Shown: piece by piece, positions 550-60,069 of the stretch
Layout of the letters: each line of letters opens with the position of its first letter
Numbering within the stretch: the first letter of the stretch is position 1
Assembly: GCA_965207225.1 (NCBI GenBank)
Contig: CBDBLV010000005.1
Span: forward strand, 2,012,974 to 2,076,973
Reading direction: 5' to 3'
DNA: 64,000 nucleotides
Origin: Dehalococcoidia bacterium
GTDB lineage: Bacteria; Chloroflexota; Dehalococcoidia; Plut-88900
The notes under the pieces: generated by a model
Seen by the model: only the letters and a program-made list of their open reading frames with translations
The model's database searches: none
Told to the model about the DNA's origin: nothing
Program-made: the position numbers and the translations under genes

Positions 550-682
550 CGTGCACCTCCTACGTGCCTGTGTTTGTGTTGCCTTGAATCCGTTGCGCCC
601 GCTTTCGGGCAAAGAAGTAGGGGCCGCCCTCGGAGAGAGCGACCCCTGCGTGTTGTGATGGGTTGTGAGAAGCCCGAAGCCG

Positions 683-1153
683 TCAGCGACGGAACCTCCG
701 CGCCGAACGACGGGGCATGAACCGCCTGAGCAGCAGCCAGCCGATGCCCAGACCGAACAGGTTCAGGAAGAACAGCTCCAGGTCGAGGGTGAGCAGCGGC
801 GCGGCGACGACCAGGGCGACGACCCCGGCCACCACGACCTTCTTCCGCTTCCACCAGGGTTTCTTGGCCTCAGCCCCAACCGCCGCATCCCTGACCGGCT
901 CGCAGGCCGTCCAGATCGGCAGACCGGTGAGGGCCTCAAGCTCGGTGACTATCACGCCGCGACCGCAGCCCCGTGTGTGGCACCGTACGTCGATGCCGTT
1001 GCCGTCGGGTCGCTGCCGAAACGCCAGCCCGTCGGACTTCCCGCCGTGGCACACCGCCGTGCTGGTCCAGAACCACCCGTTGTGGAAACTCACGCGATGC
1101 GCCAGCAGGTCTGCGATCCGCGCCGCGCTGGGTCCGACGTACTGCTCCGCCAT
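683..1153 (-). CDS. Membrane protein with N-terminal primase-like Zn-binding motif
   Basis: AVCHGGKS...VRCHTRGC motif, two C-terminal hydrophobic segments, GGAGG RBS before MAEQ. Confidence 0.6.
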   Translation of the reverse strand: MAEQYVGPSAARIADLLAHRVSFHNGWFWTSTAVCHGGKSDGLAFRQRPDGNGIDVRCHTRGCGRGVIVTELEALTGLPIWTACEPVRDAAVGAEAKKPWWKRKKVVVAGVVALVVAAPLLTLDLELFFLNLFGLGIGWLLLRRFMPRRSARRFRR

Positions 1154-1290
1154 GCTCGTACCTCCTTCTCCGTTGTCCTGTGCCCTTGATTCGTCCATGT
1201 GCGATACCCCCTTGTGTGTTGTGTGCCGTTGACTCCGTTCCTAAGACGCACCCGGACCGCCAGCGATGCAAACGCATGGGAGACCGGGGT

Positions 1291-1766
1291 GAAAGAAGAC
1301 GCAGCTCGCCCAAGGTGAAGTCGGTCAGTGGGGAAGAGTTGCGAGACGTGAAGCGGCCAGCCTGCTCGGAGCGGCAGACCGGCGCGTGTCGTAGCTGCGG
1401 TGTAGCCGCGTGCCAGCCATCCCGCAGACGTGTCGAACTGGCCGAGGCGACAGGCGCACTTCGACCAGTTTGCCGGGGACGAGGCGCTCATGCGCACCCG
1501 TCCTCCTTGGCCCAACGGATGAGGCGATCAACCCCAGCCGTCAGACCTATGCCCAGCGGGTGAAGGATCAACGTCAAACTTCAACCGCCGGACTGAGCCG
1601 GGGACGGAGGCCCTTGCGTCAACTCCGTCGAATCGGCCCGCGCTGGTTGCGAAGGACCAACGTCAAACTCCGCATTGCCAGCATTCCCTCTTGGGCGAAG
1701 CCCGTGCAACAGGGATCACGCACCCAGGTTTCTATGGTCGGAAACCTTGGAGAAAGCCAAACAGTG
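1291..1766 (-). ncRNA. Putative large structured ncRNA or ssDNA element, copy A
   Basis: Non-coding; conserved as an inverted copy at 59016-59527; many hairpins with G-U-compatible substitutions; TGnGATAAT just upstream. Confidence 0.6.
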
Positions 1767-1771
1767 GGGTC

Positions 1772-1811
1772 ATTATCGCAGGTCTCCGACGCCGAAAAGA
1801 CCCCACGCATG
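1772..1811 (-). promoter_or_regulatory. Putative promoter with shared operator motif
   Basis: CATGCGTGGGGTCTTTTCGGCGT, then 11 nt, then GATAAT. Confidence 0.5.
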
Positions 1812-1865
1812 CCCCCACCCTGAGAATTGCTCTGGGGTTCACTCCCGCATCGGCAACGCCGGGCG

Positions 1866-2723
1866 CTACTGCGAGGGCCGCCGCCACCTCAGAGTGAGCG
1901 CCCGCCACACCTTGGTCACGACCTCGCGCCTGGCCCGCGCTCTCCGCGTGTCGAAGAGGGCCTTCCTGCGCCAGCTGACCTGGCCGCTGCGGTCGAGGCC
2001 GTGCAGGGGCTGCTTCTCCGGGGGGAGCGTCATCCCGTGCTCCTCCAGCAATGCAAGCTCCATCTCCAGCAGCCGCTCCCGCTCCACCAGCCAATCAAGG
2101 CCCTTCCCGTCGTTGGGGTGAGACTCCTTCAACGCCCGCCACCGGACGATCAGGGACCAGGCGTCTCCGAAGACCTCCTCGTCGTCATCGGCGGGCTCAA
2201 GGGTCACCAGATCGGGGTACTCGCGCCGCATCGAGGACTTTGACGCAGGACTTCCTTCGCTCACTGACCCTGCATCCTCTCCTTTATCAGCGCTCTGCTC
2301 CGAGGGACCGGCGCCGGCGTGACCGGCCCCGGTCGTCTTCGGACTCACTGTGCCCTCCTTTGCGAGAGCCTCCACCGCGCCTTCCACCCTGGACAGCCGC
2401 CTGCGCGCCTCCTTGCCCAGCGACTCCATCCCGCTCTCCAACTCCCCCAGGCGCTCCTCCAGGGCGTCGTTGCGCTCTCGCTGACGGGCCGCCGCAGAAC
2501 CCACGCCCTCCTGCAAGGCCCGCTCCAGGGACTCCCGCATCCGCCGCGACAGCCTCCCCGTCCTGGCGCTCTCGGCCACCGTGCGCTGGTCGATCTCCAA
2601 CACCCGCGCCGCGCCCTTGTATCCCCGCTCCCGCACCAGCTCTTGCAGCAACGTCATGAGCCTCATGTGGTACATGTTCTCCACGTCTCTGCTGTCCTCG
2701 ATGCCGTGTTCGGTCGTCTTCAT
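1866..2723 (-). CDS. HTH plus coiled-coil putative ICE regulator
   Basis: YKGAARVLEIDQRTVAES HTH; paralogue at 23316..23756 and remnant at 57846. Confidence 0.7.
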   Translation of the reverse strand: MKTTEHGIEDSRDVENMYHMRLMTLLQELVRERGYKGAARVLEIDQRTVAESARTGRLSRRMRESLERALQEGVGSAAARQRERNDALEERLGELESGMESLGKEARRRLSRVEGAVEALAKEGTVSPKTTGAGHAGAGPSEQSADKGEDAGSVSEGSPASKSSMRREYPDLVTLEPADDDEEVFGDAWSLIVRWRALKESHPNDGKGLDWLVERERLLEMELALLEEHGMTLPPEKQPLHGLDRSGQVSWRRKALFDTRRARARREVVTKVWRALTLRWRRPSQ

Positions 2724-2759
2724 GGCAATTTCCTCCTTCTCCGAAAACTCGTTCCAGCT

Positions 2760-3130
2760 ATGAATTCCGCCAAGTCCGTGATTCGCCCGATCTCTCGCCT
2801 CGCGTAACGCACCCCCACCTCAAGCGGACTTTTCGGCCGTTTTTGTCATCGGGCCGTCGATTTTGGCCGCGTCATGCACCCCCACCTCAAGCCTCTTTTT
2901 GTCATTGGAGACCGGACTCCGCCCTTTCATCAGATTGCTCACCGTTCACCTCCTGTAGAGGGGGTTTTGCCCCTGATTTAGCTACGAAATCACGACTTTG
3001 ACCACTCAGTCACAAAAGTCCATTTCCTGTACACCCCCAATACTGCACGAAACGGGCCTCAGATAAGAGGGCATGGATGGTGCCACCATGCGTGGGGTCT
3101 TTTTCGGCGTTTGATTTGTTCACACTCTCC
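2760..3130. promoter_or_regulatory. Divergent control region (possible oriT region)
   Basis: CACCCCCACCTCAA direct repeats; operator at 3087-3110 then CACACT; homologous copies at 57463-58690 and partial copies at 23911 and 24165. Confidence 0.55.
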
Positions 3131-3172
3131 TGCGGCGGCCCAAACCGATAGGCCGCACGAAACCGCACCGAG

Positions 3173-3790
3173 GTGAATGTCTTGGCGCAGAAATCGAAAC
3201 TCCGGTCGGCAAGACGGCTGATCCCCCTGGCCATCGCGCTGTTCTTGGCGGCGCTGGTGGCCATACCCACGAGCAACCTCGCCCTGGCCCAGTCGCCGCC
3301 CGCCGGCGACATCACCCTCGTCAACACCGACAGAGAATTCGTCGAGCGCAAGAAGGGCGGCGAGTTCGTCGCACGGCCCCTCTTCGACCGCAAGATAGCA
3401 GACCTCTTCTACGCCGTTCGCGACGCCGACACCGGCGACTGGATATCCGCCATGTACCGGGTCAGGGGCGGCGAGAAGAAGCGCTCCGACGGCTGGGAGT
3501 ACTCCTGGGAGTATCCCAGGCTCGACGAGCAGCCCGACCTCGACCCCGACAGGGCCTACCTGCTGGTCATGCTGGCTCACGCCGAGGACGGCAAGCAGGG
3601 AGACTTCTACGCCGTCGTCCCCATCCACCAGCCGGGACGCATCTGGGACAAGATTCTGAGCGCCCTCAACCCCTCCCGCTGGGCCAGGGCCTTCGCCGGC
3701 TGGGTGATCGAGGGAGTCCACGGCACGCTGTGCGGCGTGGTGGAGCGGGCCTCGGGCGAGGACGCCGACAACTGCCGGGGCGGGAGTTAG
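3173..3790 (+). CDS. Secreted protein, first gene of the transfer operon
   Basis: Signal peptide ending ALA-Q; directly upstream of the VirB6-like gene. Confidence 0.7.
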   Translation: MNVLAQKSKLRSARRLIPLAIALFLAALVAIPTSNLALAQSPPAGDITLVNTDREFVERKKGGEFVARPLFDRKIADLFYAVRDADTGDWISAMYRVRGGEKKRSDGWEYSWEYPRLDEQPDLDPDRAYLLVMLAHAEDGKQGDFYAVVPIHQPGRIWDKILSALNPSRWARAFAGWVIEGVHGTLCGVVERASGEDADNCRGGS

Positions 3791-11795: not shown

Positions 11796-14327
11796 ATGAA
11801 ACAGAACCCGATACGCAAACTATTTGGAAGCGACGACAAGACCCCGGCGCTGCTTGCGGTGACGCCGCCGAGGACGGGCGAGCGGACGTTGCTGGGCGTG
11901 GAGAACCTCCTCCAGTCAATCGCGGTGCCTGAGCCCTTCTCTTTGGAGCTTGCCGGGGACATGGACGGCGTGACGCTGATGGCCCGGTGCATCGACGACC
12001 GGGTGGTACGCGGCCAGATCGCCGCCCACTACCCCCAGGCCAGGATAGAGAAGGTGGACCCAAACAACGATCCCTTGCGCCTGGGAGACGGCGAGCAGGC
12101 GTGGTCGATGACGCTCAGGGCCGACGGCCCCGAGTACGTCCCCCTGCGCACCTTCCGGGACGACGACCTCCTCGACCCCGGCTCCGACCCTCTGATCGCC
12201 CTCATGGGCGCGCTGTCGTCCCTCTACGAGGGGGAGCGCGTGGTGGCTCAACTCAAGCTGAACTCCCTCGGCCCCGACTGGTCCCAGCACCACATGGAGA
12301 AGGCCCACAAGCGGCCCGGCCAGGAGCAGCGGGAGCCGTCCTACACCTACCAAACCAAGCCCCTCCAGATGGACGGGGTGACCATGGCCGTCCTCGGCGT
12401 CGGCGCTCTCGCAGCCCTCCAAGGCTACCTGTGGGTGCAGGACGGCGAGACGTGGAAGACGGTGCTGCTTGGCATCGGAACGGCCCTGGGGCTTGGCATC
12501 GGTGGCTGGGCATGGCACCGCTTCAAGAAGGCGAGGAACCGGGTCGAAGACCCCCTGCTCATCAGGGAGAAGGTCTCCCGCATCGCCTTCGACGCCGAGA
12601 TACGGGTCACGGCGATCATGCCGGACGACACGGGGCGCGAGCGGACCGAGGAGCTCATGAGGAGGGTTGCCGCCGCCTACCGGCACTTCGACAACCCGGC
12701 AGGGGCGAGGTTCAAGGTGAGCAAGGTAAGGCCCGTCGCTCCCGCCCCGGAGAACCTGCATCCCACAGGCCCCGGCCTGTTCGGCAGGCGCAGCGTCCTG
12801 GGGGTGCGGGAGGCCGCCTGCCTCTGGCACCCGCCGGGAGCGGGGAACGAGACGCCGTTGGTGGAGCGGTCTGGCGCGCGGGCGCTCAGCCCGTCGGCGA
12901 AGGGAGTCAGGGGCGGTGCGCTGGTGGGCGACACCACGGCGGGTACCAAGAGGGAGATCAGATTCCCCGACGACCTGCTGCGCCGTCACCACCTCTACGT
13001 GGCCCGCACCCGCATGGGCAAGTCCACGCTGATGCACCACGTGGTCGCCCACAAGATGCGGGAGAAGGCGGCGGGCAGGGACGAAGACGCCATCGTCGTC
13101 ATCGACCCCCACACCGACCTGGTGGCGGGCATCCTCGAACACGTCCCGAAGGAGATAGCCGACAGGGTGAGGCTGATAGACCTGTCGGACGCGAGCCGTT
13201 CCCCCGGCGTCAATCTGCTGGACACCCGCATATTCGCAGACCGCGACCGCACCGCCGACTCGGTGGTGCGGGTGGCCAAGGGCCTCTGGGACCAGTGGGG
13301 GCCGAGGATGCAGTCGATCCTGGAACAGACCGTCAAGACGCTGCACGAGGCCAACGAGCAGATGGAGGCCGAGCAGCAGTACACCATCCTCGACGGCCTG
13401 AAGCTGCTCTCGGACGATGAGTTCGCCAAGCAGGTGCGCAAGAGGGTCTCCGACCCCTACCTGCTGGAGTGGTGGGCCAGGGACTTCGGCAAGTGGGGCC
13501 GCCAGTACAAGGCGGAGGCCCTGGCCCCCGTCCAGACCCGTCTCTCCTACTACGCGTCCTCCAAGCGGGCGAGGGCCATCCTCGGGCAGCGCCGCTCCAC
13601 CATCGACCTGAGAAGGACCATCCACGACGGCGGCGTGCTGCTGGTCTCCACCTCCCAGGGAACGGTGGGCAGGGACGTGGCCGCCCTGGTGGGCGCGTCG
13701 CTCCTGAACCTGGTGGACGCCGTGATACGGGAGCAGGGAAGTCTATCTCTCAGGGAACGTCGCGGCGCGCTGGTCGTCGTGGACGAGATGCAGTCCATGC
13801 CCGGCGTGGACTACGAGTCGATGTTGTCGGAGCTTGGGAAGTTCGGAGCGTCCTTCGTGCTGGCGACCCAGAGCCTGGCCAAGCTGGACGACCTCTCCCG
13901 CACCATGCGCGACACCATCCTCGCCAACGTGGGGTGCCTCGCCGTCTTCCAGGTGGCCGGCTCAGACGCCAGGACCCTGGTGTGGGAGCTTGGCAAGGAC
14001 CGGGTGTCCGAGGACGACATCGTGTCCCTGCCCGTGCACCACTGCTACGTCCGCGCCACCGTGGGCACCGAGCGGATGCCCGCCTTCTCGATGGAGGTGC
14101 GCAAGCCTGAGGAAGGAGACCCATCGGTCGCCGACCGCATACGTGCAGCTACGCAAGGCTACACCGTCTCGGCCCGCCAGGGAGACTACGCCGACGCCGA
14201 GGGCCACGAGAAGGTGGACGAATTTCACAAAGGCGTCGAGGCATTGGAGCAGGCCGAACGGGAGGAGAACGACGAGCAGGCGACCGAGAACCACACCGAC
14301 GAAGAGGACGAGGAGGTCGGAGAATGA
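11796..14327 (+). CDS. virD4: Type IV coupling protein (VirD4/TraD-like)
   Basis: ARTRMGKS Walker A, VIDPH, VVDEMQ, LATQS; two internal TM. Confidence 0.85.
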   Translation: MKQNPIRKLFGSDDKTPALLAVTPPRTGERTLLGVENLLQSIAVPEPFSLELAGDMDGVTLMARCIDDRVVRGQIAAHYPQARIEKVDPNNDPLRLGDGEQAWSMTLRADGPEYVPLRTFRDDDLLDPGSDPLIALMGALSSLYEGERVVAQLKLNSLGPDWSQHHMEKAHKRPGQEQREPSYTYQTKPLQMDGVTMAVLGVGALAALQGYLWVQDGETWKTVLLGIGTALGLGIGGWAWHRFKKARNRVEDPLLIREKVSRIAFDAEIRVTAIMPDDTGRERTEELMRRVAAAYRHFDNPAGARFKVSKVRPVAPAPENLHPTGPGLFGRRSVLGVREAACLWHPPGAGNETPLVERSGARALSPSAKGVRGGALVGDTTAGTKREIRFPDDLLRRHHLYVARTRMGKSTLMHHVVAHKMREKAAGRDEDAIVVIDPHTDLVAGILEHVPKEIADRVRLIDLSDASRSPGVNLLDTRIFADRDRTADSVVRVAKGLWDQWGPRMQSILEQTVKTLHEANEQMEAEQQYTILDGLKLLSDDEFAKQVRKRVSDPYLLEWWARDFGKWGRQYKAEALAPVQTRLSYYASSKRARAILGQRRSTIDLRRTIHDGGVLLVSTSQGTVGRDVAALVGASLLNLVDAVIREQGSLSLRERRGALVVVDEMQSMPGVDYESMLSELGKFGASFVLATQSLAKLDDLSRTMRDTILANVGCLAVFQVAGSDARTLVWELGKDRVSEDDIVSLPVHHCYVRATVGTERMPAFSMEVRKPEEGDPSVADRIRAATQGYTVSARQGDYADAEGHEKVDEFHKGVEALEQAEREENDEQATENHTDEEDEEVGE

Positions 14328-15985
14328 GACCCGCGGGACTGGAAGCTCAGATCATCCGCATCCTGGCCGACATGCCCTACCTCAATCGCCGGGAGATGGT
14401 CCCGGTCACGGGCCGGTCCAAGGGCGCGGTCCACGAGGCCGTAGAGAGACTGCAAAATGGCGGCCTCTGCGACTCCGTGCTCCACGCCGTCGATCCCTTT
14501 TCCCCTTCCCGCAGGTTCCACCTCACCGGGGCGGGGCTGCGCAGGCTTGCAGATGAGGACGGGATTTCGCCGGACAACCTGGTGCGTACACACCCCCTCT
14601 CCGCCGAGTGGCGGCGAAGCCTGATGGAGCGCATGGACGCCCTGGCTTCCATATACCACGTCGCATCTCTCGCTTCCGACGTTGCCTACCCCCTGCGTTT
14701 CCGCTGGTACCGCTCATCCAAGCTGGACGCGGGTATAGAACTTCCCGACGGCAGGACCGTCGGCATCGTGAGGCAGGGACTCACCGCCGACCGCTCGGTC
14801 TTCGCCCAGCGCCTCTGGCGACTGAAGGACGAACCCATGCCCGGAGTCGTCCTCGTCCTCACGATGGACGCCGTCCGTCTCAGGCACGCCCGCAGGATGC
14901 TCTCGACCACAGACGTTCCGTCCCTCCTGGCCGTCGAACGCGAGACGGTCATGGCCGACGTAGACGCCCCGATCTGGACTCCGGCCCAGGTCCACGCAGC
15001 CGTGAGCCTGCGCTATTCGTTGGACAGGACCGACCCCCGCGGCGCGTTTCCGGGGGAGCCGCAGCCCGGACTGGCGTCGGTCCCTGCCGACCTGCCCGTC
15101 ATGGGAACGGTAGCCGACATGGCCGACCACATGCTGCCCGTGACGCTCAGACCCGCCGAGAAGCGCGCCCTCGACCTGGTTTTCGACTGGCCCTGGATCG
15201 CCCTCGGCGAACTCGCCGGTCTGTTGGGCGTCTCGCCCCAGAGGGCTTCCCAGATCGTCAATCCACTGGAGGGCTTCAGCCTCGTCGTCAGGCCCCGCGA
15301 AGCGGAGGGACGGCTGGCCCTCACCGACCGGGGACTGGCCCTCCTCGCCCGCAGGGACAGGACCTCGGTGGCGGCGGCGAGGAGGAGATTGAGCGTCGCC
15401 CCGGAGGACGCCAAAGGGCCTTTCGAGTGGCGCAACCTCACCGGCAGCAGGAGCCGCCAGCTTCTCAGGAACATCGAGCACACCGAGGCCGTCCACGTCT
15501 TCCTGTCCGCGCTTGCGGCCCAGGCCCGGCACCTGGGCTGGGAGATAGCGCAGCTCGACCCGCCCAGGAGGGCGTCCCGCCACTTCCGCCACGACGAACG
15601 GATGCGCGCCGTCTACCCCGACGCCTTCGGCGTCCTGCGCAGGGGCGAAGAGACGTGGGCCTTCTTCCTGGAGTGGGAGCGAAGGGCCGTTCGGCCCTCG
15701 ACGATGGCGACGCGGCTCGCCCCCTATCTGCGCTACTACTCGTCCCACAGGCCCACCGACGACCACGGGGCCAGACCCGCCGTTCTCATCGTCTTCGACG
15801 ACGACATCGCCGCCACCCACTTCCTGCGCGTGGCGAGGGAGCGGATGCAGGCCAGCCGGGTCACGGTCCCCCTGTGGGTCTCCCACAAAGAAGCCATCGA
15901 CTCCCTGGGACCGCTGGGACGCGCCTGGCGCACCCCGGACGCCGCCTGGGAGCCGCCCCAGTCCCTGCCGACGGAAGCGAAATGA
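14324..15985 (+). CDS. Replication-relaxation family relaxase with duplicated architecture
   Basis: YPDAFG...FFLEWER motif after a wHTH; degenerate N-terminal repeat; downstream of the coupling protein. Confidence 0.75.
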   Translation: MRPAGLEAQIIRILADMPYLNRREMVPVTGRSKGAVHEAVERLQNGGLCDSVLHAVDPFSPSRRFHLTGAGLRRLADEDGISPDNLVRTHPLSAEWRRSLMERMDALASIYHVASLASDVAYPLRFRWYRSSKLDAGIELPDGRTVGIVRQGLTADRSVFAQRLWRLKDEPMPGVVLVLTMDAVRLRHARRMLSTTDVPSLLAVERETVMADVDAPIWTPAQVHAAVSLRYSLDRTDPRGAFPGEPQPGLASVPADLPVMGTVADMADHMLPVTLRPAEKRALDLVFDWPWIALGELAGLLGVSPQRASQIVNPLEGFSLVVRPREAEGRLALTDRGLALLARRDRTSVAAARRRLSVAPEDAKGPFEWRNLTGSRSRQLLRNIEHTEAVHVFLSALAAQARHLGWEIAQLDPPRRASRHFRHDERMRAVYPDAFGVLRRGEETWAFFLEWERRAVRPSTMATRLAPYLRYYSSHRPTDDHGARPAVLIVFDDDIAATHFLRVARERMQASRVTVPLWVSHKEAIDSLGPLGRAWRTPDAAWEPPQSLPTEAK

Positions 15986-17747: not shown

Positions 17748-17791
17748 TAGTGGCCCACGGGAACGACAGGAAACAGGAGGAGGACTCACAG

Positions 17792-19723
17792 ATGAACAAT
17801 AGAAGCGACTACACCCCCGTGGCCCTCTACGCCAGGGTCTCCAGCGACAGACAGGACGTGGACCTGTCCGTGGCCGCACAGCTGCGGGCGCTCAGGGAAT
17901 ACGCCCATAAGAACGACTACGTGGTCGTCCGCGAGTACGTGGACGAGGCCGAGAGCGGGCGCGTCGCCGACCGCCCGGAGTTCCGCAAGATGATCGACGA
18001 GGCCGCCAAGCCCGAGGCCCCGTTTAGAGAAATCCTTGTCTGGAAATTTAGTAGATTCACCAGAAAGCGCGAGCACGCCGTCGCCTTCAAGTCCATGCTC
18101 AGGCGAAAAGGCGTCCGCGTCGTCTCCATCACCGAGCAGGCCGACGACACCGCCACCGGCAGGCTCCTTGAGGGAATCATCGAGTCGGTCGATGAGTTTT
18201 ACTCGGAAAATCTTGCGGAAGAGGTTCGCCGTGGGATGCGGGAGGCCGCTTCCAGAGGCTTCTGGGTCGCCAGCCGGACGCCCTACGGCTACAACCGCGT
18301 CATGGTGCAGGACGGAGCCAAGAAGCGGCCCACACTGGAGATCGACCCTGACACTGCTCCCGTCGTCAAGCGCATCTTCGACATGGCCGAGTCGGCCACC
18401 GGGATGACCGAAATCACCCGCACACTCAACTCAGAGGGCATCGCCAGCGCCACCGGCAAGCTCTGGTCCAAGAACGGCGTCCACTTCATCCTCAGAAACG
18501 AGGTCTACACGGGCACGCTGCTCTGGGGCACTACAGGGAAGGTCAAGTCCGACCCCGTACGCATAGAGAAGGCGTTCCCCGCCGTCGTCTCCAAGGCCCA
18601 ATTCAACCGCGTCAAGCGGCTCATGCGCTCCCGCGCGCCGAAGAGGACGCACCCTCGCAGGGTGGGAAGCTCCTACCTGCTCAGCGGGCTGGTCAGGTGC
18701 AAGTCCTGCAACAGGGCGCTCTCAGGCCAGGACGCCAAGAGCGGCCAGTTCGCCTACTACGTCTGCCAGTCCATCATGAAGCGGGGCAAGAACGCTTGCA
18801 CGACCCCCAGGCTCAACGCACGACGCTTCGAGGAGATGGTGGTGGAGAGGATACGGGAGAACGTCCTCACCGAGTCCAACATCACCGAACTGGTCAAGAT
18901 CGTGGACGAGGAGATGGATGGGGTGGCAGCGGAGCAGCGGCAGAAGCTGGAGACCATCGAGGCCGAGCTTGATGAGGTCAAGCGCAAGCTGGGCCGCGTC
19001 TGGCACCTGGTGGAGAACACCGACCTCGACATGGCCGACGCCTCGGAACGCATCAGGGAGCACCGGGAGCGTCAACAGTGCCTTGAGGACTCGGCGGCCG
19101 AGGCCAGGACCATCCTCTCCCAGCGCAGGGAGGTTTTGGACGACGTGGAAACCATCGCCACCTATGCCCAGGACATGAGCGAGTTCCTGAAGGAGAGCGA
19201 ACTGACCGAGCGCAGGGCCTTCATCGAGTCTTTCGTCAAGGAGATCGTCGTCATGCCCGACAACGCCCTCCTCCGGTACACCATCCCCATGCCTCAGGAT
19301 GGACCGGTAGGAGGGAAAACCGCCGAGGAGATGGACCTGAACGGCTCGGTTCTGTCTACCGTCAAAAATGGTGGGCCGGACTGGACGAAATCAAGAACCG
19401 ATGCCGACTCCCGCCTCACTCCGTCCCTGGGCATGGGCACCGTGTACGTCAGCGTCGCCTCGTCTTCCACCACCTCGATAGCCTCCACGAAGTTGCGGAT
19501 GAGGGCCTTGCGTTCGGGGATCGTCCCCTCCCTCAGGAACTCCCGGAAGTCCGCCACGTACTCCGCTATCTCCTCCGTGTCGGGAAGGGCAACCCGCCGC
19601 CGCTCAAGCTGGGTCTCGGCGTCCTCTCTCGCAGCCTCAAGCTGCTCCTCACGGTGCCGCAGGGACATGATGCGGGGCGACAGCACCTCCAAGGTCAGGT
19701 CGCTGGTCTCGATGGCCTCGTAG
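17792..19723 (+). CDS. Large serine recombinase A; residues after ~19374 are read-through into the antisense of integrase B
   Basis: YARVSS catalytic motif, recombinase domain, LLSGLVRCKSC Zn ribbon, coiled coil. Confidence 0.93.
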   Translation: MNNRSDYTPVALYARVSSDRQDVDLSVAAQLRALREYAHKNDYVVVREYVDEAESGRVADRPEFRKMIDEAAKPEAPFREILVWKFSRFTRKREHAVAFKSMLRRKGVRVVSITEQADDTATGRLLEGIIESVDEFYSENLAEEVRRGMREAASRGFWVASRTPYGYNRVMVQDGAKKRPTLEIDPDTAPVVKRIFDMAESATGMTEITRTLNSEGIASATGKLWSKNGVHFILRNEVYTGTLLWGTTGKVKSDPVRIEKAFPAVVSKAQFNRVKRLMRSRAPKRTHPRRVGSSYLLSGLVRCKSCNRALSGQDAKSGQFAYYVCQSIMKRGKNACTTPRLNARRFEEMVVERIRENVLTESNITELVKIVDEEMDGVAAEQRQKLETIEAELDEVKRKLGRVWHLVENTDLDMADASERIREHRERQQCLEDSAAEARTILSQRREVLDDVETIATYAQDMSEFLKESELTERRAFIESFVKEIVVMPDNALLRYTIPMPQDGPVGGKTAEEMDLNGSVLSTVKNGGPDWTKSRTDADSRLTPSLGMGTVYVSVASSSTTSIASTKLRMRALRSGIVPSLRNSRKSATYSAISSVSGRATRRRSSWVSASSLAASSCSSRCRRDMMRGDSTSKVRSLVSMAS

Positions 19724-20940
19724 AGCTTCCCCAGACGCCTCTGCACGTCCGATAGCTCCGCCTCGACTGACTCCAGCCTGCCGGACAGCTCTCCAGCCAT
19801 GGCGTCTATCTCCTCCGCCACCAGTTGCACCAGCTCCACGATGGTCTCCTCGGTCAGGATGCGCTCCCGTATCTTCTCCACCACGAAGTCCTCGACCTTG
19901 GGGGCGTTCAGGTAGCGGGCGCTGCACGTCCCCGCTCCCTCCCTGAACAGCGTCCCGCAGATGTAGTAGGCGAACTGCCCGCTCTTGGCTCCCTGGGCCG
20001 AGTAGGGCCTGCCGCACACTCCGCACTTCAGCAGCCCGCTCAGCAGGTACTGGCTCCCCACTCTACCGGGCCTCTGCACCTTCGGCGCACGCTCGCTCAT
20101 CGCCTGCTGCACCTCGTCGAACAGCTCCCGCGACACCAGGGCAGGCCACGCTCCCTCCACCCGCACCGGGTCCTGGGCCTTCTCGTTCTTGCCCTTGAGT
20201 CCCCATACGGCTGTTCCCGTATAGGCTTCGTTCCTCAGCACGTAGTGGAGTCCGCCCTTGTACCAGCGCTTCCCCCGGTTGGTGACGCCCCGGTCGTTCA
20301 GCTCCCTACACAGCTCCTTGAGGCCGTGACCGCTCAGGGACTTCTCGAATATCTCCTTCACTACAGGAGCGGTGGCCGGGTCAACCTCAAGTGAGGGGCG
20401 CTCCTTCGCCCCGTCCTGTACCTTGATCTTCCTGTAGCCGAAGGGGGCCTTGGAGCCGAGGAAGAAGCCTCTCGACGCCGCTTCCCTCATCCCCCTGACA
20501 ACCTCTTCCGCAAGACTCTCCGAATAGAATTCATCCACCGACTCGATGATGCCCTCCAGCAGCCTGCCGGTGACGGTGTCGTCGGCCTGCTCGGTGATGG
20601 AGATCACCCTGATGCCCTTGCGCCTAAGCTGGGACTTGAACGCGACGGCGTGCTCCCGCTTGCGGGTGAAGCGCGAGAATTTCCACACCAAGATGACCTC
20701 AAAAGGAGCCTGGGGCTTGGAGCCCTCCTCGATCATCTCCCGGAACTGGGGCCGGTCGGCGACCCTGCCGCTCTCGGCCTCGTCCACGTACTCCCGTGTC
20801 ACGGAGTAGCCGTTGGCCTTCGCATATTCCTTGAGCGCCCGCAGCTGGGCGGACACGGACAGGTCCACGTCCTGCCTGTCGCTGGACACCCTGGCGTAGA
20901 GTGCCGCCGCCGTCAGCGGCTGTAGGTGCTGCTTCTTCAT
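19294..20940 (-). CDS. Large serine recombinase B, paralogue of A
   Basis: YARVSS, LLSGLLKCGVC; 3' end crosses the att centre. Confidence 0.93.
   Translation of the reverse strand: MKKQHLQPLTAAALYARVSSDRQDVDLSVSAQLRALKEYAKANGYSVTREYVDEAESGRVADRPQFREMIEEGSKPQAPFEVILVWKFSRFTRKREHAVAFKSQLRRKGIRVISITEQADDTVTGRLLEGIIESVDEFYSESLAEEVVRGMREAASRGFFLGSKAPFGYRKIKVQDGAKERPSLEVDPATAPVVKEIFEKSLSGHGLKELCRELNDRGVTNRGKRWYKGGLHYVLRNEAYTGTAVWGLKGKNEKAQDPVRVEGAWPALVSRELFDEVQQAMSERAPKVQRPGRVGSQYLLSGLLKCGVCGRPYSAQGAKSGQFAYYICGTLFREGAGTCSARYLNAPKVEDFVVEKIRERILTEETIVELVQLVAEEIDAMAGELSGRLESVEAELSDVQRRLGKLYEAIETSDLTLEVLSPRIMSLRHREEQLEAAREDAETQLERRRVALPDTEEIAEYVADFREFLREGTIPERKALIRNFVEAIEVVEDEATLTYTVPMPRDGVRRESASVLDFVQSGPPFLTVDRTEPFRSISSAVFPPTGPS
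19346..19401. other. att junction between elements A and B
   Basis: Symmetric TCGGTTCT...AGAACCGA and CGTC...GACG around the central GG. Confidence 0.85.
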
Positions 20941-28160: not shown

Positions 28161-30284
28161 TCACTCGCAGACCACGCCGTCGTTGTCGGCGTCGTTCATG
28201 TACTCGTATGCGGGATGTCCACGGCGCACAGGAGCAATGCCGTGGTTGCGCGCCTCCGCGCAGGTGATGCGGCCGTTCCCGTTGTCGTCGTACAGCTCTA
28301 GGGCGTTGTTGACTGCTCCGTCTCCTCGCGCAGTAGCGGGGGTCGGTGTAGGGGCGGGAGCTTCTCGCACAATCATCTCAGTGGACGTGCAGCCCGACAA
28401 GATGCTCTCCAGGGCGTCACGTTCGCTTTCGTCGATGGTCAGGTGATATCTCTCCTTGACCTCGACGACGCGGTTCGCAAACCAGCAATGATTCAGGTCG
28501 GGGACCCATTCGGCGACATCCTTGCCGCTCTTCTGGTGGCGATTCACCGAGGGACTGGCCAGGGTGAGATTGATCAGGTCTGAGGCAAACCGTCGTCTCG
28601 TTGCGGAGTCCGCTGCGCAGAGGCCGCTGTCGTGGGCCTCGGAGCGTGCGACGATATGCTCGATATCGGTGTCCGACGTGCTATCGAACCAGCTTCCCGT
28701 GTATGGGCCGTAGACGATGCCTCCCATGCTGTCAACGATTTCTTGCTCCACGGACTGGGGATAACGGTAGTCGTCAGCGTCATATGTCGAGCAGCGGTCT
28801 TCTGGCGCAACCACAAGCCCGCGCCAGGTACCCAGACGATTGTGGGCTTCTGAACCAGTATTGAGGTCAATTTCAAGGACGCAGCCGGTCTTGAAGTACT
28901 TGTCGGTATCGAGAATCTCGACGTAGAACTGCCCTCTCGCGTTGTCTATGGCAATGACGTCCGACAACTCCCCCGACACTCCGCTCAGGCGAGTCCATGA
29001 GCAAGAGTCCAGCGCCCCAGTTCCCGCCATCCCTGCATATACGCCAGGTCGGATGTCTCGTCCTACGATGTGCGTGCCGATCTCAATCTTTGACAACGGC
29101 TCATCTGGTGTGGGCCAGTCATCAAGGTGGGTCATGGAGCAGCCGGTCTTGAAGTACTTGTCGGTATCGAGAATCTCGACGTAGAACTGCCCTCTCGCGT
29201 TGTCTATGGCAATGACGTCCGACAACTCCCCCGACACTCCGCTCAGGCGAGTCCATGAGCAAGAGTCCAGCGCCCCAGTTCTCGCCATCCCTGCGTATAC
29301 GCCAGGTCGGATGTCTCGTCCTACGATGTGCGTGCCGATCTCAACCTTTGACAACGGCTCATCTGGTGCGGGCCAGTCATCAAGGTGGGTCATGGAGCAG
29401 CCGGTCTTGAAGTACTTGTCGGTATCGAGAATCTCGACGTAGAACTGCCCTCTCGCGTTGTCTATGGCAATGACGTCCGACAACTCCCCCGACACTCCGC
29501 TCAGGCGAGTCCATGAGCAAGAGTCCAGCGCCCCAGTTCCCGCCATCCCTGCATATACGCCAGGTCGGATGTCACTACCGACCTCGTACGTTCCAGGATC
29601 GAATCCAGCTTGGATGGTGGTCATCGGCTCCGGTGTTTCCGTGGGGGTTTGAGTCGATGCTGGTGTCGGTCTCGGTCCCGGATTGACAGTAGGAGGGATG
29701 CTCGTAGCGGTGGGGTCAGGCTTCGGTGTCGATACTGGCTCAGAAGTCATAGAATCGGAAGTAGTTACTTCTATGCTGATCTCTTGGCCTTCCACCCCTC
29801 CTAAACCAATTGCTCTTATGCGGTACTTGTGCTCTTCGCCGCTTCTGAGTCCCGCGTCGGTAAACATTGCCTCCGATACGAAGTGATGCTCGTCAAGGCC
29901 CAAGAATACGTCTCGGGTCACTTCATAACGTTCGACAGTAACCACATCGCTGTTTACTGGAGGTTTCCATTTGAGCGTGATTGAGTTCTCAGTAACACTG
30001 GCTACCTCAAGGTTCTGAATGACACCTGGAGGGGCGGCAGCAGAGGTGGGAGTGTCAGTCGATGCGGGCGTTGGCGTCACCAAAGGTGCCGACGTGGGGG
30101 TGTCAATCAGCGTGGGTGTTGGAGTTGCCGTAGGTGCCGGTGTGGAGGTGTCGATCGGCGTAGATTGCTCGTCGCTACATGCGGCCAGAGACATGACGAA
30201 AAGGACCACTACGAGGCTGATTAACATCACCGGGCGGGCTCTCTCCCGTGACCGTGTACGTATCGACGCCTCAAGCCTCTTCAT
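28161..30284 (-). CDS. Lipoprotein: FN3, three 86-aa repeats, DUF1524/HNH-like nuclease, Excalibur Ca-binding domain
   Basis: LAAC lipobox, DIEHIVA...N..S.N, DADNDGVVCE. Confidence 0.85.
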   Translation of the reverse strand: MKRLEASIRTRSRERARPVMLISLVVVLFVMSLAACSDEQSTPIDTSTPAPTATPTPTLIDTPTSAPLVTPTPASTDTPTSAAAPPGVIQNLEVASVTENSITLKWKPPVNSDVVTVERYEVTRDVFLGLDEHHFVSEAMFTDAGLRSGEEHKYRIRAIGLGGVEGQEISIEVTTSDSMTSEPVSTPKPDPTATSIPPTVNPGPRPTPASTQTPTETPEPMTTIQAGFDPGTYEVGSDIRPGVYAGMAGTGALDSCSWTRLSGVSGELSDVIAIDNARGQFYVEILDTDKYFKTGCSMTHLDDWPAPDEPLSKVEIGTHIVGRDIRPGVYAGMARTGALDSCSWTRLSGVSGELSDVIAIDNARGQFYVEILDTDKYFKTGCSMTHLDDWPTPDEPLSKIEIGTHIVGRDIRPGVYAGMAGTGALDSCSWTRLSGVSGELSDVIAIDNARGQFYVEILDTDKYFKTGCVLEIDLNTGSEAHNRLGTWRGLVVAPEDRCSTYDADDYRYPQSVEQEIVDSMGGIVYGPYTGSWFDSTSDTDIEHIVARSEAHDSGLCAADSATRRRFASDLINLTLASPSVNRHQKSGKDVAEWVPDLNHCWFANRVVEVKERYHLTIDESERDALESILSGCTSTEMIVREAPAPTPTPATARGDGAVNNALELYDDNGNGRITCAEARNHGIAPVRRGHPAYEYMNDADNDGVVCE
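28881..29573. repeat. 258 bp tandem repeat, about 2.7 near-identical copies
   Basis: Units start at 28881, 29139 and 29397. Confidence 0.95.
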
Positions 30285-43758: not shown

Positions 43759-43788
43759 GATCGCCGGTTCAAATCCGGTCACCCCGAC
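43759..43788 (+). other. tRNA 3' fragment (Pro-like)
   Basis: GCCGG-TTCAAAT-CCGGT-CACCCCG-AC: T arm and acceptor strand only. Confidence 0.7.
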
Positions 43789-43997
43789 TAACTCTCCGTC
43801 CGTCTACAGACGGTTGAACAAGCATAGGTTGTCGGCTGTGGGTTCAAGAAAAACGCTATGGGTGGCGCACTTCTCCAACTTACCGCCCTTCCCATTTTTC
43901 AGACTTGAGGTAATACCTTCACATGGAAAGCATTCCTTTTGTCGGAACGGGTTTTCAGCTACGAACGTGGCGGAGTGTTTCTTAGGGCGTTACTTTG

Positions 43998-45417: not shown

Positions 45418-45455
45418 TAAAAGATAAGAGGTTGTTGGGGTACTATGAAGTTAAC

Positions 45456-58690: not shown

Positions 58691-59015
58691 CAACCGGGGG
58701 CCAACGGCCTGGCCGGGATGGTGTGGAGACCGTGATAGGACCGGTCAATAGCTCCTGGTCGTCACTGGATGGGACTTGGCGCAAGGCCGCGCTCTCCGGC
58801 ACGCGGAGGGCACGGGAGAATGGGGAGTGTATGGATACACTGAGGCGCTTGCTGTCCCTGTGGCTATGGTCGAAGTGACAGGCTTGACTATGCACAAGGT
58901 CGGATCGTCAAGGATGTGAACTTTAGTTGAAGTGGATATGAACTAAATCAACCGATCTGGGCCATAACGCCGTCAAAGCCTTCTCAACGCCGCGACGGTC
59001 TGCTAATAATGGTTG

Positions 59016-59527
59016 CACTGTTTGGCTTTCTCCAAGGTTTCCGACCATAGAAACCTGGGTGCGTGATCCCTGTTGCACGGGCTTTGCCCAAGAGGGAATG
59101 CTGGCGATGCGGAGTGACAAGCCCTTCGCAACCAGCGCGGGCCGATTCGACGGAGTGAACAAGCCCTCCGTTCTCGGCTCAGTCCAGAGGGCTGAAGTTT
59201 GACGTTGGTCCTTCACCCGCTGGGCAATCGTCCGGCGCATCGGAGTTGATCGCTCCGGTTGCTGGGCACAGGTCCAACGGCTGGGGTTGATCACCTCAAC
59301 GTCGGACCCATGGGACTCGGTGTGCGTTCAGCGTCTCGCCCCCGGCAAACTGGTTGAAGTGCGCCTGTCGCCTCGGCTAGTTCAGCATGTCTGCGGTCAG
59401 GCTGGCAAACAGCTAGGCTACAGCTTCGCAACGCGCCGGTCTGTAGCTCTGAGCAGGCTGGCCGCTTCACGTCCCGCAGCTTTCCCGTTGTCGTTGTTCA
59501 CCTCGGGCCGGACTGCGTCCTCTTCTC
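59016..59527 (+). ncRNA. Putative large structured ncRNA or ssDNA element, copy C
   Basis: Homologue of 1291-1766 with one extra hairpin; TGCTAATAAT upstream. Confidence 0.6.
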
Positions 59528-60069
59528 GTTGCGTCATCCTGTGGTTTGCGCCGCAGGTCAGACGCTTCCCCTCATCGCGGCTTCTTCCCGACTGACGATG
59601 CTCGTCCTGGGCCGAGCTGCGCCTTTCGCATTCCACTCCGTAACACGCGTCCGGCATTCGACCGTGGGCGGAGTGCGTCTTCCGTCGAACGATCCCATCA
59701 CGCACGCACAACCCACGCCACGGATGCCGCGCGGGTCAACAACCAGAAGGAGGTGCACATGCACATTGAGTAACCGGTAGGCGAGGTCGAGGGCGTCGCA
59801 GTCTGCTTCGGCAGCTTTGGCGTCTCGACATACGGCCTGGAGTCCACTTCGTCGCTGACGATCGGGGCTTCCGGCTTCTCGCATACAAGACCCATAGCAG
59901 TTGGCGAGCACAGGGCCGCTTCTCTTCACCAAGAGGAGCGGCCCTTCTCTTTGCAAACACAAACCCACGGAGACAGTCCCGGCATTCGGGACAACCAATT
60001 CGAGCGGGACTGTCTCCACCCCACGGGGGTGGTGGGCCGTCCCGCTTCTTCATTGAAAGGAGAAGCGAC

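Follow-up and report, generated by a model that had tools for sequence, protein, structure and literature searches.

A strand-specifically folded element of a Chloroflexota ICE family that looks like an undescribed RNA with its own promoter

The window analysed here, that is, the whole stretch of 64,000 nucleotides from a Dehalococcoidia bacterium, contains the same non-coding element in two copies, copy A (1291-1766, minus strand) and copy C (59016-59526, plus strand). Judged from its sequence, the element appears to be an elaborately folded RNA that has not been described before and that has a promoter of its own. Its conservation, the strand-specificity of its pairing, the fixed position of its -10 box and its synteny are directly observed here. 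We tentatively hypothesize, with a probability of roughly 45%, that it is a cis-acting structured leader, in which a factor bound to repeated hairpins sets the read-through of a terminator-like 3′ module.

Copies A and C share 390 of 465 aligned letters (84%; 390 of 522 with gaps counted as mismatches) and, as the initial annotation had reported, neither flank can be aligned. The sequence details that it quoted, including the -10 boxes, were likewise all found as described. The arms of helix H7 change from AACTGGTCGA/TCGGCCAGTT in copy A to AACTGGTTGA/TCGGCTAGTT in copy C, another pair of arms changes from GGTCTGACG/CGTTGGGCC to GGTCCAACG/CGTCGGACC, and CCGG/CTGG becomes CCAG/CTGG. Four hairpins in copy A and five in copy C have loops that begin with T(T)(T)GA, and their closing stems pair GGAG, GAAG or GGGG with CTTC or CTCC. 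The element folds on the sense strand only, into about 10 helices and an array of similar hairpins, which are placed as follows.

1291..1766, minus strand: putative RNA body of copy A, with the predicted start at the A at 1765
1724..1750, minus strand: hairpin H1 of copy A, CCAAGGUUUC-CGACCAUA-GAAACCUGG, the most conserved part of the family
1704..1723, minus strand: H2 of copy A (GUGCG ... UGCAC)
1693..1703, minus strand: H3 of copy A in its minimal form, GGGC-UUC-GCCC
1641..1683, minus strand: H4 of copy A, an outer stem UGCUGG/CCAGCG enclosing the hairpin GGAG-UUUGACGUUGGUC-CUUC
1595..1639, minus strand: H5 of copy A, GGGCCGA...GACGGAG-UUGACGCAAGGGC-CUCCGUC...GGCUC
1510..1593, minus strand: central array of copy A, two hairpin units of ~42 nt with the loops UUUGACGUUGAUC and UUGAUCG
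1476..1505, minus strand: H6 of copy A (GAGGACGGGUGCGC-AUGA-GCGCCUCGUCCC)
1436..1470, minus strand: H7 of copy A (AACUGGUCGA ... UCGGCCAGUU)
1394..1429, minus strand: H8 of copy A (CUGCGG ... GGCUG-loop-CGGCU ... CCGCAG)
1353..1385, minus strand: H9 of copy A (GCGCCGGUCUGC-loop-GCAGGCUGGCCGC), with two conserved G.U pairs
1291..1343, minus strand: H10 of copy A, a terminator-like long hairpin (CGCAACUC ... GAGCUGCG) and the tail UCUUCUUUC
1299-1291, minus strand: pyrimidine tail, taken as the 3′ end of the copy A RNA
59016..59526, plus strand: putative RNA body of copy C, with the predicted start at ~59017
59032-59058, 59099-59137 and 59139-59180, plus strand: H1, H4 and H5 of copy C
59182-59307, plus strand: array of copy C, three units
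59312-59342, 59348-59382 and 59389-59424, plus strand: H6, H7 and H8 of copy C
59433-59465 and 59475-59517, plus strand: H9 and H10 of copy C
59577..59629, plus strand: second H10-like hairpin of copy C (CGCGGCUU ... GAGCUGCG, then CCUUUCGC)

One-strand pairing, first proposed from the two copies alone, is borne out by 49-63 homologues in which base pairing is kept. Folded as RNA, the minus strand of copy A reaches -223.3 kcal/mol (z -3.97, with 0 of 100 shuffles as good), compared with -193.8 kcal/mol for the plus strand (z -0.66, 29 of 100). Across 116 pairs and 49 sequences, 95.6% of the cells are paired against 36.6-48.3% when the partners are slid, and 89 cells have changed on both sides against 10-44. 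For the 5′ domain in 63 sequences the corresponding values are 96.3% against 43-53% and 84 against 8-27; 87.7% of the cells are paired in 71 distinct UUGAUCG hairpin units (37-53% slid), and across subfamilies both-sided changes are found in 13 of the 28 pairs of the 3′ domain (2-6 slid), but unrelated alignment columns co-vary too, through shared descent, and the shuffle controls therefore overstate covariation. G.U outnumbers A.C by 737 to 102 among the 5649 paired cells of the domains and by 241 to 22 among the 1063 of the hairpin units; G.U-type pairs account for 13% and 23% of paired cells, respectively, and several are fixed in position. In the hairpin units the loops are invariant and the stems variable.

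These properties also bear on whether the element acts as RNA or as DNA. It has to be considered that the hairpins might form a priming site of the ssi or sso type in single-stranded DNA, after transfer or in rolling-circle replication, where they would prime for an ICE-encoded DnaG-type primase or for host enzymes. Strand-specific structure, repeated hairpins and conserved loops are consistent with such a site, the downstream operon of related loci encodes a DnaG-type primase and a Rad52/22 protein, and with DNA parameters the sense strand of copy A still folds at z -2.00 (3 of 100 shuffles as good). However, the fold stands out further from shuffled sequences when computed as RNA (z -3.97) than when computed as DNA (z -2.00), the G.U-type pairs would become G.T mismatches that weaken DNA hairpins, H3 can carry GNRA caps, and a DNA site does not need the -10 box found 5 nt before the block in 81 of 82 upstream sequences. 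Hence, we regard a single-stranded DNA site as distinctly unlikely. A double-stranded DNA site, comprising either palindromic operators or iterons at ~42-bp spacing for the adjacent HTH proteins or an oriT, seems highly improbable: the units are indeed inverted repeats with a period of ~42 bp (four helical turns) and HTH proteins are encoded on both sides (one of 285 aa, the other of 385 aa with four HTH_3 stretches), but departures from symmetry are 7-11 times more often of the G.T than of the A.C type on one strand, the stems change on both sides around invariant loops whereas a palindromic operator would conserve its half-sites, long-range helices and a variable-length H3 are meaningless in duplex DNA, and the Replic_Relax gene is 12 kb away.

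The helices differ in the kind of variation they show. The pairs of H1 are almost invariant in 63 sequences; distant relatives also retain H1, with one-sided changes in a 49.9-bit match and in the form of CACUUUCC/GGAAAGUG in a 28.4-bit match. At pair 53-72 of H2 (alignment A4), 41 sequences have UA and 21 have GC, and pair 137-172 of H4 (alignment A2) is CG in 26 and GC in 20. The length of H3 ranges from 12 to 46 nt among copies, with its pairing kept, and 5 of 63 copies cap it with a GNRA loop (GCAA in 3, GAAA in 1 and GUGA in 1). The array comprises 1-5 units among the 64 full-length copies. Both-sided changes are seen in 4 of the 11 pairs of H6 (49-sequence alignment), in 5 of the 10 pairs of H7, where 21 sequences have GC and 18 have AU at pair 603-639, and, across subfamilies in the alignment fitted to the model, in 9 of the 10 pairs of H8. 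Of the two conserved G.U pairs of H9, one is GU in 46 and the other UG in 44 of the 49 sequences. Two long-range pairs suggested by RNAalifold on the whole alignment were rejected: 79-82/655-659 competes with the covarying local H3, and 229-242/515-527 is an artefact of aligning unequal numbers of repeat units. A further RNAalifold alternative, pairing the 5′ end with H10, shows one-sided changes only and cannot be traced by eye in subfamily 3.

H10 encloses an interior of 25-45 nt and, because this loop is large, is not a canonical intrinsic terminator. Over the first 9 nt of its tail the median number of U is 5, but 14 of 46 copies have only 3. The size of the interior and the U-poor tail of these copies count against a leader function, and H10 may not be a working terminator at all. 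In copy C, the second H10-like hairpin lies downstream of the first, and tandem 3′ (H9-H10) modules, 2 to 5 per locus, are present in at least 11 of the 72 loci scored (for example, as five nhmmer pieces in locus L074), placed between the core and the next gene.

The promoter assignment rests on the sequences immediately upstream of the conserved start, where the following elements are recognized.

1772..1777, minus strand: -10 box GATAAT of copy A, ending 5 nt before the conserved start
1795..1800, minus strand: weak -35-like hexamer TCTTTT of copy A, 17 nt upstream of the -10 box
59005..59010, plus strand: -10 box AATAAT of copy C, 5 nt before the conserved start

The -10-like box that had been pointed out before the 5′ boundary of both copies proved to be a fixed feature of the family. 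A -10-like hexamer, defined by A in position 2 and T in position 6, is present in all 82 distinct upstream sequences and ends exactly 5 nt before the conserved start in 81 of them; shuffled upstream sequences contain any such hexamer in a mean of 21.5 of 82. In 67 of the 82, the hexamer agrees with TATAAT in 5 of 6 positions. The best -35 hexamer is TCTTTT in 21 and TTCACA in 18 of these sequences. At the thresholds applied, a simple scan of 600-3200 predicted no promoter, nor did it place a terminator within the element. Apart from the -10 box, which is not part of the folded block, the upstream sequence has diverged. Both flanking genes have the folding strand as their sense strand, so that it cannot be their template, which excludes a single-strand promoter for the neighbouring genes. 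Thus, while the interpretation of the initial annotation as an unrecognised, strand-specific, multi-hairpin ICE element stands, the single-strand promoter that it also envisaged does not.

A conserved reading frame was said to be absent, and the larger alignment agrees, with a median of 4-5 stops in the sense frames and only 66 of 748 indels relative to copy A being a multiple of 3 in length. The longest stop-free stretch per sequence has a median of 151 aa, and antisense frames have the fewest stops, which could speak for a gene; yet long stop-free stretches are usual in DNA of 65% G+C, conservation tracks base pairing and there are more than 100 homologous loci, which makes a protein-coding gene, a decayed gene or a chance similarity between two repeats extremely improbable. 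The impression that the element is not a known RNA held when Rfam was searched. No match at the gathering threshold was obtained in a cmscan of the whole window against Rfam 15, nor was there any match for 10 loci covering all three subfamilies, and at E up to 10 the sole match in the region 1100-1950, to MAT2A_D (16.7 bits; gathering score 32), is due to chance and falls outside the element. Literature searches covering the main text of articles returned no description of the element. Mimicry of a CRISPR repeat was rejected, as all 10 of 10 matches to the unit motif in the element's own genome fall within element copies. A resemblance between the hairpin unit and the 3′ end of the 16S rRNA of the same genome, which share CGGCUGG, GAUC and CCUC, was also set aside as most likely due to chance, because the shared 5′ part varies between units.

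Across the family the element measures ~480 to 870 bases. We recovered 64 full-length copies (49 non-redundant) and two more distant subfamilies, making three subfamilies in total, with host genomes that are nearly all Dehalococcoidia/Chloroflexota. The element's own genome gives 15 BLAST matches, corresponding to about 9-10 copies, and three distant ones. In a pattern scan of species genomes, 73 of 76 among the matches listed are Dehalococcoidia, Chloroflexota or SAR202 records, and a plasmid collection returned no blastn match to the element.

The genetic setting is that of an ICE, as had been proposed, and includes genes for TrbL/VirB6, a T4SS pilin, a coupling protein, a Replic_Relax protein and serine recombinases. 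Within this T4SS-type ICE the position of the element is always the same. The operon of the element is divergent from the T4SS genes and lies downstream of a regulator-like gene. The genes next to copy A are the following.

1866..2723, minus strand: upstream gene for a 285-aa protein, the conserved neighbour of the RNA
683..1198, minus strand: downstream gene, whose product is Zn-ribbon-like and has a hydrophobic segment at its C-terminus

The N-terminus of the 285-aa protein is HTH-like; the protein also has a coiled coil, and its C-terminal domain is conserved. It belongs to no Pfam or NCBIfam family at cut-off, and a protein atlas gives only sub-threshold leads to XRE-type HTH regulators (0.82). 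By tblastn, a homologue is encoded upstream on the same strand in 79 of the 85 loci whose upstream sequence extends for 1000 nt or more, and the match stops some 90-330 nt, in most cases 100-210 nt, short of the RNA start. The downstream genes are also on the strand of the element and differ between loci while the RNA is unchanged, being either a Zn-ribbon/primase operon or a multi-HTH gene. Zn-ribbon-like homologues follow the element in 40 of 99 loci; in copy A the likely start of this gene is the ATG at 1153 behind AAGGAGGT, 139 nt after H10, and the 171-aa downstream protein has no Pfam or NCBIfam match. In the Zn-ribbon class, the next same-strand gene, with a strong SD, begins 28-140 nt after H10. 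The multi-HTH class has 290-430 nt before the next gene, enough to accommodate another promoter, which is a point against a leader. Among the 72 loci scored for this spacing a start could be called in 58, of which 12-13 have a strong SD and ATG only 28-49 nt after H10.

This spacing helps to weigh a cis-acting leader against a stand-alone, trans-acting RNA that ends at H10 and serves as a scaffold or sponge for an RNA-binding protein of the ICE or the host, or assembles with itself through its loops, many of which contain the palindrome GAUC; the downstream genes would then be expressed independently. Such an RNA would have its own putative promoter and a hairpin with a pyrimidine tail at its 3′ end. 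Neither neighbour comes close to the RNA in conservation (identity in the upstream protein drops to 44-50% where the 5′ domain of the RNA stays nearly invariant), the RNA is retained where the downstream genes differ, and near-identical apical motifs in 1 to 5 array units, with invariant loops on variable stems, recall protein-sponge RNAs. However, in the 12-13 loci where the SD follows H10 after only 28-49 nt there is no room for a separate promoter and transcription must therefore continue through the element, at least in those loci. Tandem H9-H10 modules are also hard to explain if the RNA stops at the first, and the GAUC loop is not universal, with UUGACUC, UUGACCC and GUGUUUAAGUC also occurring in subfamily 2. 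A stand-alone RNA is thus possible, although we would rather doubt it. That a constant RNA is accompanied by differing downstream genes counts against the leader and fits a self-contained RNA equally well.

If the element is a cis-acting leader, as we favour, a putative transcript would start from its own sigma-70-type promoter, at ~1765 on the minus strand in copy A and at ~59017 on the plus strand in copy C, and run in the same direction as the flanking genes. It would fold into a 5′ domain of high conservation (H1-H5), 1-5 additional hairpins of ~42 nt that form a variable array and carry the conserved apical motifs GGAG-U(U)UGA...-CUUC, and a 3′ domain (H6-H9), and would end in one or more terminator-like modules (H9-H10 and the pyrimidine tail). 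The operon that follows this presumed leader encodes Zn-ribbon, 189-aa, DnaG-type primase and Rad52-type proteins, or a multi-HTH regulator. The repeated hairpins would bind a factor, most likely a protein, and depending on the resulting fold RNA polymerase would stop at H10 or read through, leading to conditional expression of establishment and replication genes. Transcription, factor binding and attenuation or antitermination are all steps that we infer, and likewise termination at H10.

We further speculate, as an idea with long odds, that the element represents a new class of ornate RNA, large (0.5-0.9 kb) and modular, which is a fixed part of a widespread Chloroflexota ICE family, and that its array is a multivalent platform licensing replication and establishment genes. 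In that case the array would capture a protein or self-associate via its palindromic GAUC loops, and this would amount to RNA-based control of the establishment of a conjugative element, which has no described counterpart. A leader, in turn, would add an RNA layer to the timing of the primase and recombination genes of conjugative elements, and a stand-alone RNA would represent a new ornate RNA class. To our knowledge, few bacterial RNAs longer than ~400 nt have conserved complex folds. Several of the known large bacterial RNAs proved mechanistically unusual. The element is tractable, having a defined context, many copies and natural variants (unit number, three subfamilies and tandem 3′ modules) that form a ready-made mutational series, and models R1 and R2 provide a sensitive marker for finding such ICEs in the genomes of Chloroflexota, an uncultured and environmentally abundant phylum.

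Several known systems resemble the element in part. ToxI-like RNAs of type III toxin-antitoxin systems consist of near-identical direct repeats in tandem, after which come a terminator and a gene for a ToxN/AbiQ-type endoribonuclease; this class was rejected, as the stems of the units differ with compensating changes, the downstream genes vary and the 171-aa protein lacks a family assignment. CsrB/RsmZ-type sponge RNAs expose GGA motifs in hairpin loops. In the element, GGAG is base-paired to CUUC/CUCC as the 5′ side of the apical stem, the four pairs of this closure being 100% standard in 71 units, and the Rfam models of CsrB/RsmZ gave no match, so that this type was likewise discarded. With the single-strand promoters and initiation sites (Frpo and ssi) of plasmid leading regions the element shares a strand-specific, folded, non-coding sequence of a few hundred nucleotides beside genes needed early in the recipient. 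The Frpo hairpin, however, forms on the strand that is the template for the genes under its control and contains the -35 and -10 hexamers in its stem, whereas the element folds on the sense strand of its neighbours and has its -10 box outside the fold.

Tandem structural units, a location in mobile DNA and adjoining genes for DNA-handling proteins link the element to the STAXI motif (RF01728). STAXI consists of pseudoknot units repeated two or three times and is listed for Enterobacteriales, and Weinberg et al. 2010 raised the same question of RNA or single-stranded DNA for it (PMC2864571). In contrast to STAXI, the units of the element fold as simple, plain 15-bp hairpins within an RNA of 0.5-0.9 kb with unique 5′ and 3′ domains, the element occurs in Chloroflexota, and the RF01728 model gave no cmscan match to it. 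ROOL and GOLLD, which are carried by phages or plasmids, are like the element multi-helix RNAs of hundreds of nucleotides and of unknown function. GOLLD and ROOL form homo-oligomers (PMC12286853), and the palindromic GAUC loops of the element could in principle pair loop to loop, although its oligomerisation is speculative. Both RNAs are in Rfam and neither model matched the element by cmscan; the element differs from them in being specific to an ICE and to Chloroflexota and in its modular array of variable copy number.

Finally, the conjugative plasmid pLS20 has a relaxase that we take to belong to the same Pfam family as the Replic_Relax protein of the ICE in the window, and its conAn antitermination system is reportedly a further precedent. 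The pLS20 conjugation operon begins with a 456-nt leader that encodes an attenuator and is followed by an antitermination system (PMC13401043). Both this leader and the element are long, head an operon of a conjugative element and have a terminator, putative in the element, preceded by long imperfect stem-loops, but the pLS20 leader heads the T4SS operon and the element a divergent one, and the abstract of PMC13401043 mentions neither an array of repeated hairpins nor loops of strong conservation for the pLS20 leader. The two were compared by description rather than by sequence, and the antiterminator pairing of the element is putative. Of the features of an attenuator, the element has H10 and the pyrimidine tail, in atypical form, and for the 5′-end/H10 pairing there is a prediction with one-sided changes only; it occupies the position of a conjugation-operon leader, between the putative promoter and the first gene of the operon.

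Two diverged versions of one element, copy A (1291-1766, minus strand) and copy C (59016-59526, plus strand), are identical at 390 of 465 aligned letters, and their flanks do not align on either side. The initial annotation had described a conserved structured element whose copies match while the flanks diverge, and this description holds: the paired substitutions, the GGAG/CUUC-closed hairpins (four in copy A, five in copy C) and the -10-like box are all where it had placed them. The window's own genome gives 15 BLAST matches, corresponding to about 9-10 copies, of which three are identical and the others 77-91% identical, some being split by insertions; matches were also found in 9 of 61 related genomes. 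When a 24-letter degenerate pattern from the 5' hairpin was used to scan a collection of species genomes, at least 76 loci were obtained; among the 76 pattern matches listed, 73 are Dehalococcoidia, Chloroflexota or SAR202 records and three are unrelated chance matches. Seven of 18 metagenome contigs carrying the pattern are strong members (151-188 bits). The 64 full-length copies were reduced to 49 with less than 95% mutual identity, which are 490-638 nt long and have one shared plan. The element is real, well-delimited, strand-specific and structured, and it is a new family and a fixed part of a Chloroflexota integrative conjugative element (ICE) lineage.

The predicted anatomy of copy A, with helices H1-H10 numbered from the 5' end, is as follows (all minus strand):

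1750-1724, H1, 5' domain
1723-1704, H2, 5' domain
1703-1693, H3, 5' domain
possible enclosing helix CUUUC/GAGGG, 5' domain
1683-1641, H4, 5' domain
1639-1595, H5, 5' domain
1593-1510, central hairpin array, units of about 42 nt
1505-1476, H6, 3' domain
1470-1436, H7, 3' domain
1429-1394, H8, 3' domain
1385-1353, H9, 3' domain
1343-1300, H10, long terminator-like hairpin, followed by UCUUCUUUC

Copy A has two array units and copy C three, with 1-5 across the 64 copies. H4, H5 and the array units have a common apical motif, in which GGAG, GAAG or GGGG is paired with CUUC or CUCC and the loop starts with U(U)UGA. Comparison of the 71 distinct units whose 7-nt loop reads UUGAUCG shows a variable 15-bp stem but an invariant loop and invariant closing pairs. 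The unit at 1510-1552 (CGGCUGG GGUU GAUCGCCUC) resembles the 16S rRNA 3' end of the genome (L114:1493-1516, CGGCUGGAUCACCUCC), a likeness that is probably due to chance, since the 5' portion in common differs from one unit to another. More than one H9-H10 module is present in at least 11 of the 72 loci scored, with three in tandem in L097, L093 and L042 and five nhmmer pieces of the module in L074. In copy C, another H10-like hairpin lies downstream of the first, at 59577-59629.

Of 82 distinct upstream sequences, 81 have a -10-like hexamer, mostly GATAAT or AATAAT, whose end is exactly 5 nt away from the conserved block, and in 67 of the 82 the hexamer matches TATAAT at five of six positions; in the shuffled upstream control, a mean of 21.5 of 82 had any such hexamer in the scanned window. 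The remaining upstream sequence diverges, save for a variable -35 hexamer (TCTTTT in 21, TTCACA in 18), and a simple consensus promoter scan did not pick up the copy A promoter because its -35 is poor. As the -10 box is fixed relative to the block, conservation starts at the predicted transcription start, which is expected of an RNA gene or leader and not required of a DNA site. The sense strand folds better than its shuffles with RNA parameters (-223.3 kcal/mol, z -3.97, 0/100 shuffles as good), whereas the antisense strand does not (-193.8 kcal/mol, z -0.66, 29/100); with DNA parameters, the sense strand gives -102.6 kcal/mol (z -2.00, 3/100). We consider it highly improbable that the element is a duplex operator array.

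The pairing is conserved in four alignments; the domain structure tested was obtained with RNAalifold run on each domain separately.

Pairing conservation. Slid, every 3' partner moved by 1-3 columns with relatedness kept; shuffled, mean of 500 shuffles.
5' and 3' domains, 116 pairs, 17 helices, 49 sequences: 95.6% of cells paired (slid 36.6-48.3%); 89 cells changed on both sides (shuffled 32.4; slid 10-44)
5' domain with 14 more divergent copies, 53 pairs, 63 sequences: 96.3% paired (slid 43-53%); 84 changed on both sides (shuffled 22.4; slid 8-27)
Hairpin units, 15 pairs, 71 units: 87.7% paired (slid 37-53%); 56 changed on both sides (shuffled 23.8; slid 3-26)
3' domain across subfamilies, 28 pairs, 22 distinct sequences, alignment fitted to the 3'-domain covariance model R2 and leaning towards the structure: 93.4% paired (slid 29-51%); 23 changed on both sides (shuffled 5.4; slid 2-9)

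None of 500 shuffles reached the observed count of cells changed on both sides in any of the four tests, and as unrelated columns also co-vary through shared descent in an all-column-pair scan, the shuffle controls overstate the significance of these tests. Counted by pairs, 23 were changed on both sides in the 116-pair test, which is not far above the slid controls (7-21; shuffled mean 12.9), and 13 of 28 in the cross-subfamily 3' test (slid 2-6). Examples are pair 137-172 of the copy alignment (CG in 26 sequences, GC in 20), pair 603-639 (GC in 21, AU in 18) and an H2 pair (UA in 41, GC in 21). The length of H3 varies, from 12 nt in the GGGC-UUC-GCCC hairpin to 46 nt in an extended form, without loss of pairing, and in five copies the cap is GCAA, GAAA or GUGA. 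Among non-Watson-Crick cells, G.U far exceeds A.C in the domains (737 vs 102) and in the hairpin units (241 vs 22), and the pairing therefore exists on the sense strand only. The initial annotation had seen no conserved ORF, and none emerged here: sense frames have a median of 4-5 stops, and indels ignore codon phase (66 of 748 have a length that is a multiple of three). A coding or chance origin is thus scarcely credible. The element is likely to be a functional structured RNA of one kind or another, and probably an RNA leader or non-coding RNA.

Copy A sits in a T4SS-type ICE whose T4SS genes lie on the plus strand from 3173, and the element belongs to a divergent, minus-strand operon:

1866-2723, same strand as the element, gene for a 285-aa protein, directly upstream of copy A
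plus strand, TrbL/VirB6-like protein
plus strand, T4SS pilin
11796-14327, plus strand, coupling protein
14324-15985, plus strand, Replic_Relax protein
also in this ICE, two large serine recombinases and an IS21 insertion

The 285-aa protein combines an HTH-like N-terminus with a coiled coil and a conserved C-terminal domain. Among the 85 loci whose upstream sequence is long enough, 79 encode a homologue of it upstream on the same strand, ending about 90-330 nt (in most cases 100-210 nt) ahead of the RNA start; TrbL homologues lie farther upstream, divergently, in 31 of 41 eligible loci. Upstream of copy C (57463-59005), the 285-aa HTH gene is not intact and is represented only by a tblastn remnant of 29 residues; its place is taken by an 82-nt divergent-promoter-region motif that occurs three times (57599, 58142, 58493). 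The serine recombinase genes (17750-19723, plus; 19294-20940, minus) face each other, with 568-nt arms (17821-18388 and 20338-20905) that are 78% complementary, and are probably the integration end of this ICE. An IS21-family element (IstA-like, 411 aa; IstB, 267 aa) is present twice, at 8501-~10700, splitting the T4SS gene row, and at 55101-~57300, adjoining the remnant that holds copy C; the two are 100% identical over the 300-nt stretches compared. Elsewhere in the window, three tandem 258-nt repeats (28881-29654; 98% and 79% identical to the first) fall inside a 707-aa ORF (28161-30284, minus strand). The large ORFs 41577-43757 and 51925-54561 start with a similar 85-nt 5' segment (41701-41785 and 51989-52073, 76% identical), and both contain ACGCC-rich repeats (41792-52367) that read like Thr/Pro-rich linkers.

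Downstream genes are always on the element's strand, in two arrangements. The first comprises genes for a 171-aa Zn-ribbon-like protein (40 of 99 loci) and a protein of 189 aa (37 of 99), after which related loci encode a DnaG-type primase and a Rad52/22 protein; a strong Shine-Dalgarno sequence and ATG lie 28-49 nt after H10 in 12-13 loci, counted among the 58 with a callable start in the two arrangements together, and about 100-140 nt after it in many others. In the second (38 of 99 loci, including copy C), a 385-aa protein with four HTH_3 stretches is encoded after a gap of about 290-430 nt. The neighbouring primase suggests a single-stranded-DNA priming site, akin to the single-strand origin that the initial annotation had considered; this part of its interpretation is unlikely, fitting poorly with a boundary aligned to the promoter, with the GNRA caps and with the large number of conserved G.U pairs, and the structured, strand-specific ICE element is the part that stands. 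A stand-alone scaffold or sponge RNA would suit the element's independence from downstream gene identity and is possible, if doubtful. We tentatively favour, with a probability of roughly 0.45, a cis-acting leader of the primase-containing operon, because of the predicted promoter, the large conserved fold with its multivalent hairpin array, the hairpin and pyrimidine-tail module(s) and the co-oriented gene, sometimes only about 30 nt past the element. In such a leader, a putative factor would bind the element, and the bound factor and resulting fold would set the level of read-through into the operon.

The family extends further. With the 5'-domain covariance model R1, 12 of 151 genomes matched in a class sample, with strong scores (>170 bits) for three members of the window's own family and weak ones (22-50 bits) in three other families; two of 151 matched in a phylum sample, one being the window's own genome. 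R1 also gave a 186-bit match (L127, G277:C1:360484-360657) in a genome that belongs to the phylum but to a different class, which suggests that the ICE moved between classes. The weak matches are true relatives: all five fetched, three of them from the own genome, have an HTH-protein homologue upstream (29-43% identity), all four examined closely share a related 5' hairpin and a -10 box placed 5 nt ahead of the start, and three of the five (L130, L132, L134) have a 3' domain detectable with R2 (73-79 bits). The three own-genome copies, of subfamily 3 (L130-L132: G000:C4:864353-864497, G000:C5:1561700-1561908, G000:C4:744928-745070), each have the upstream homologue at 29-40% identity, and in L130 and L132 the -10 box again precedes the start by 5 nt; adding these copies gives about 13 such ICEs, or remnants, in this genome. 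A further subfamily of about 870 nt has an insert in which a AAGGAGGUG...GAAACAGSACGGCRUCCCGG segment is conserved, with no start codon after it. In the subfamily 2 RNAs L079, L082, L059, L046, L064 and L102, the conserved AAGGAGGUG segment lies around positions +480 to +540, counted from the RNA start, is complementary over at most 11 nt to the genome's 16S rRNA 3' end, and is followed by no start codon at a usable distance and, in several copies, by stop codons.

The initial annotation had not recognised a known RNA, and searches agree: no Rfam 15 family matched across the whole window, in the element region at permissive thresholds, or in ten loci from all subfamilies. A plasmid collection held no DNA similar to the element, and we found no description of it in the main texts of the literature searched. 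The element is not a member of STAXI, the pLS20 leader, ROOL or GOLLD. These are its closest analogues: the STAXI motif of mobile DNA, whose structured units also stand in tandem near DNA-handling genes and whose authors did not decide between RNA and ssDNA (PMC2864571); the large ornate RNAs ROOL and GOLLD; and the 456-nt leader with attenuator that heads the pLS20 conjugation operon (PMC13401043).
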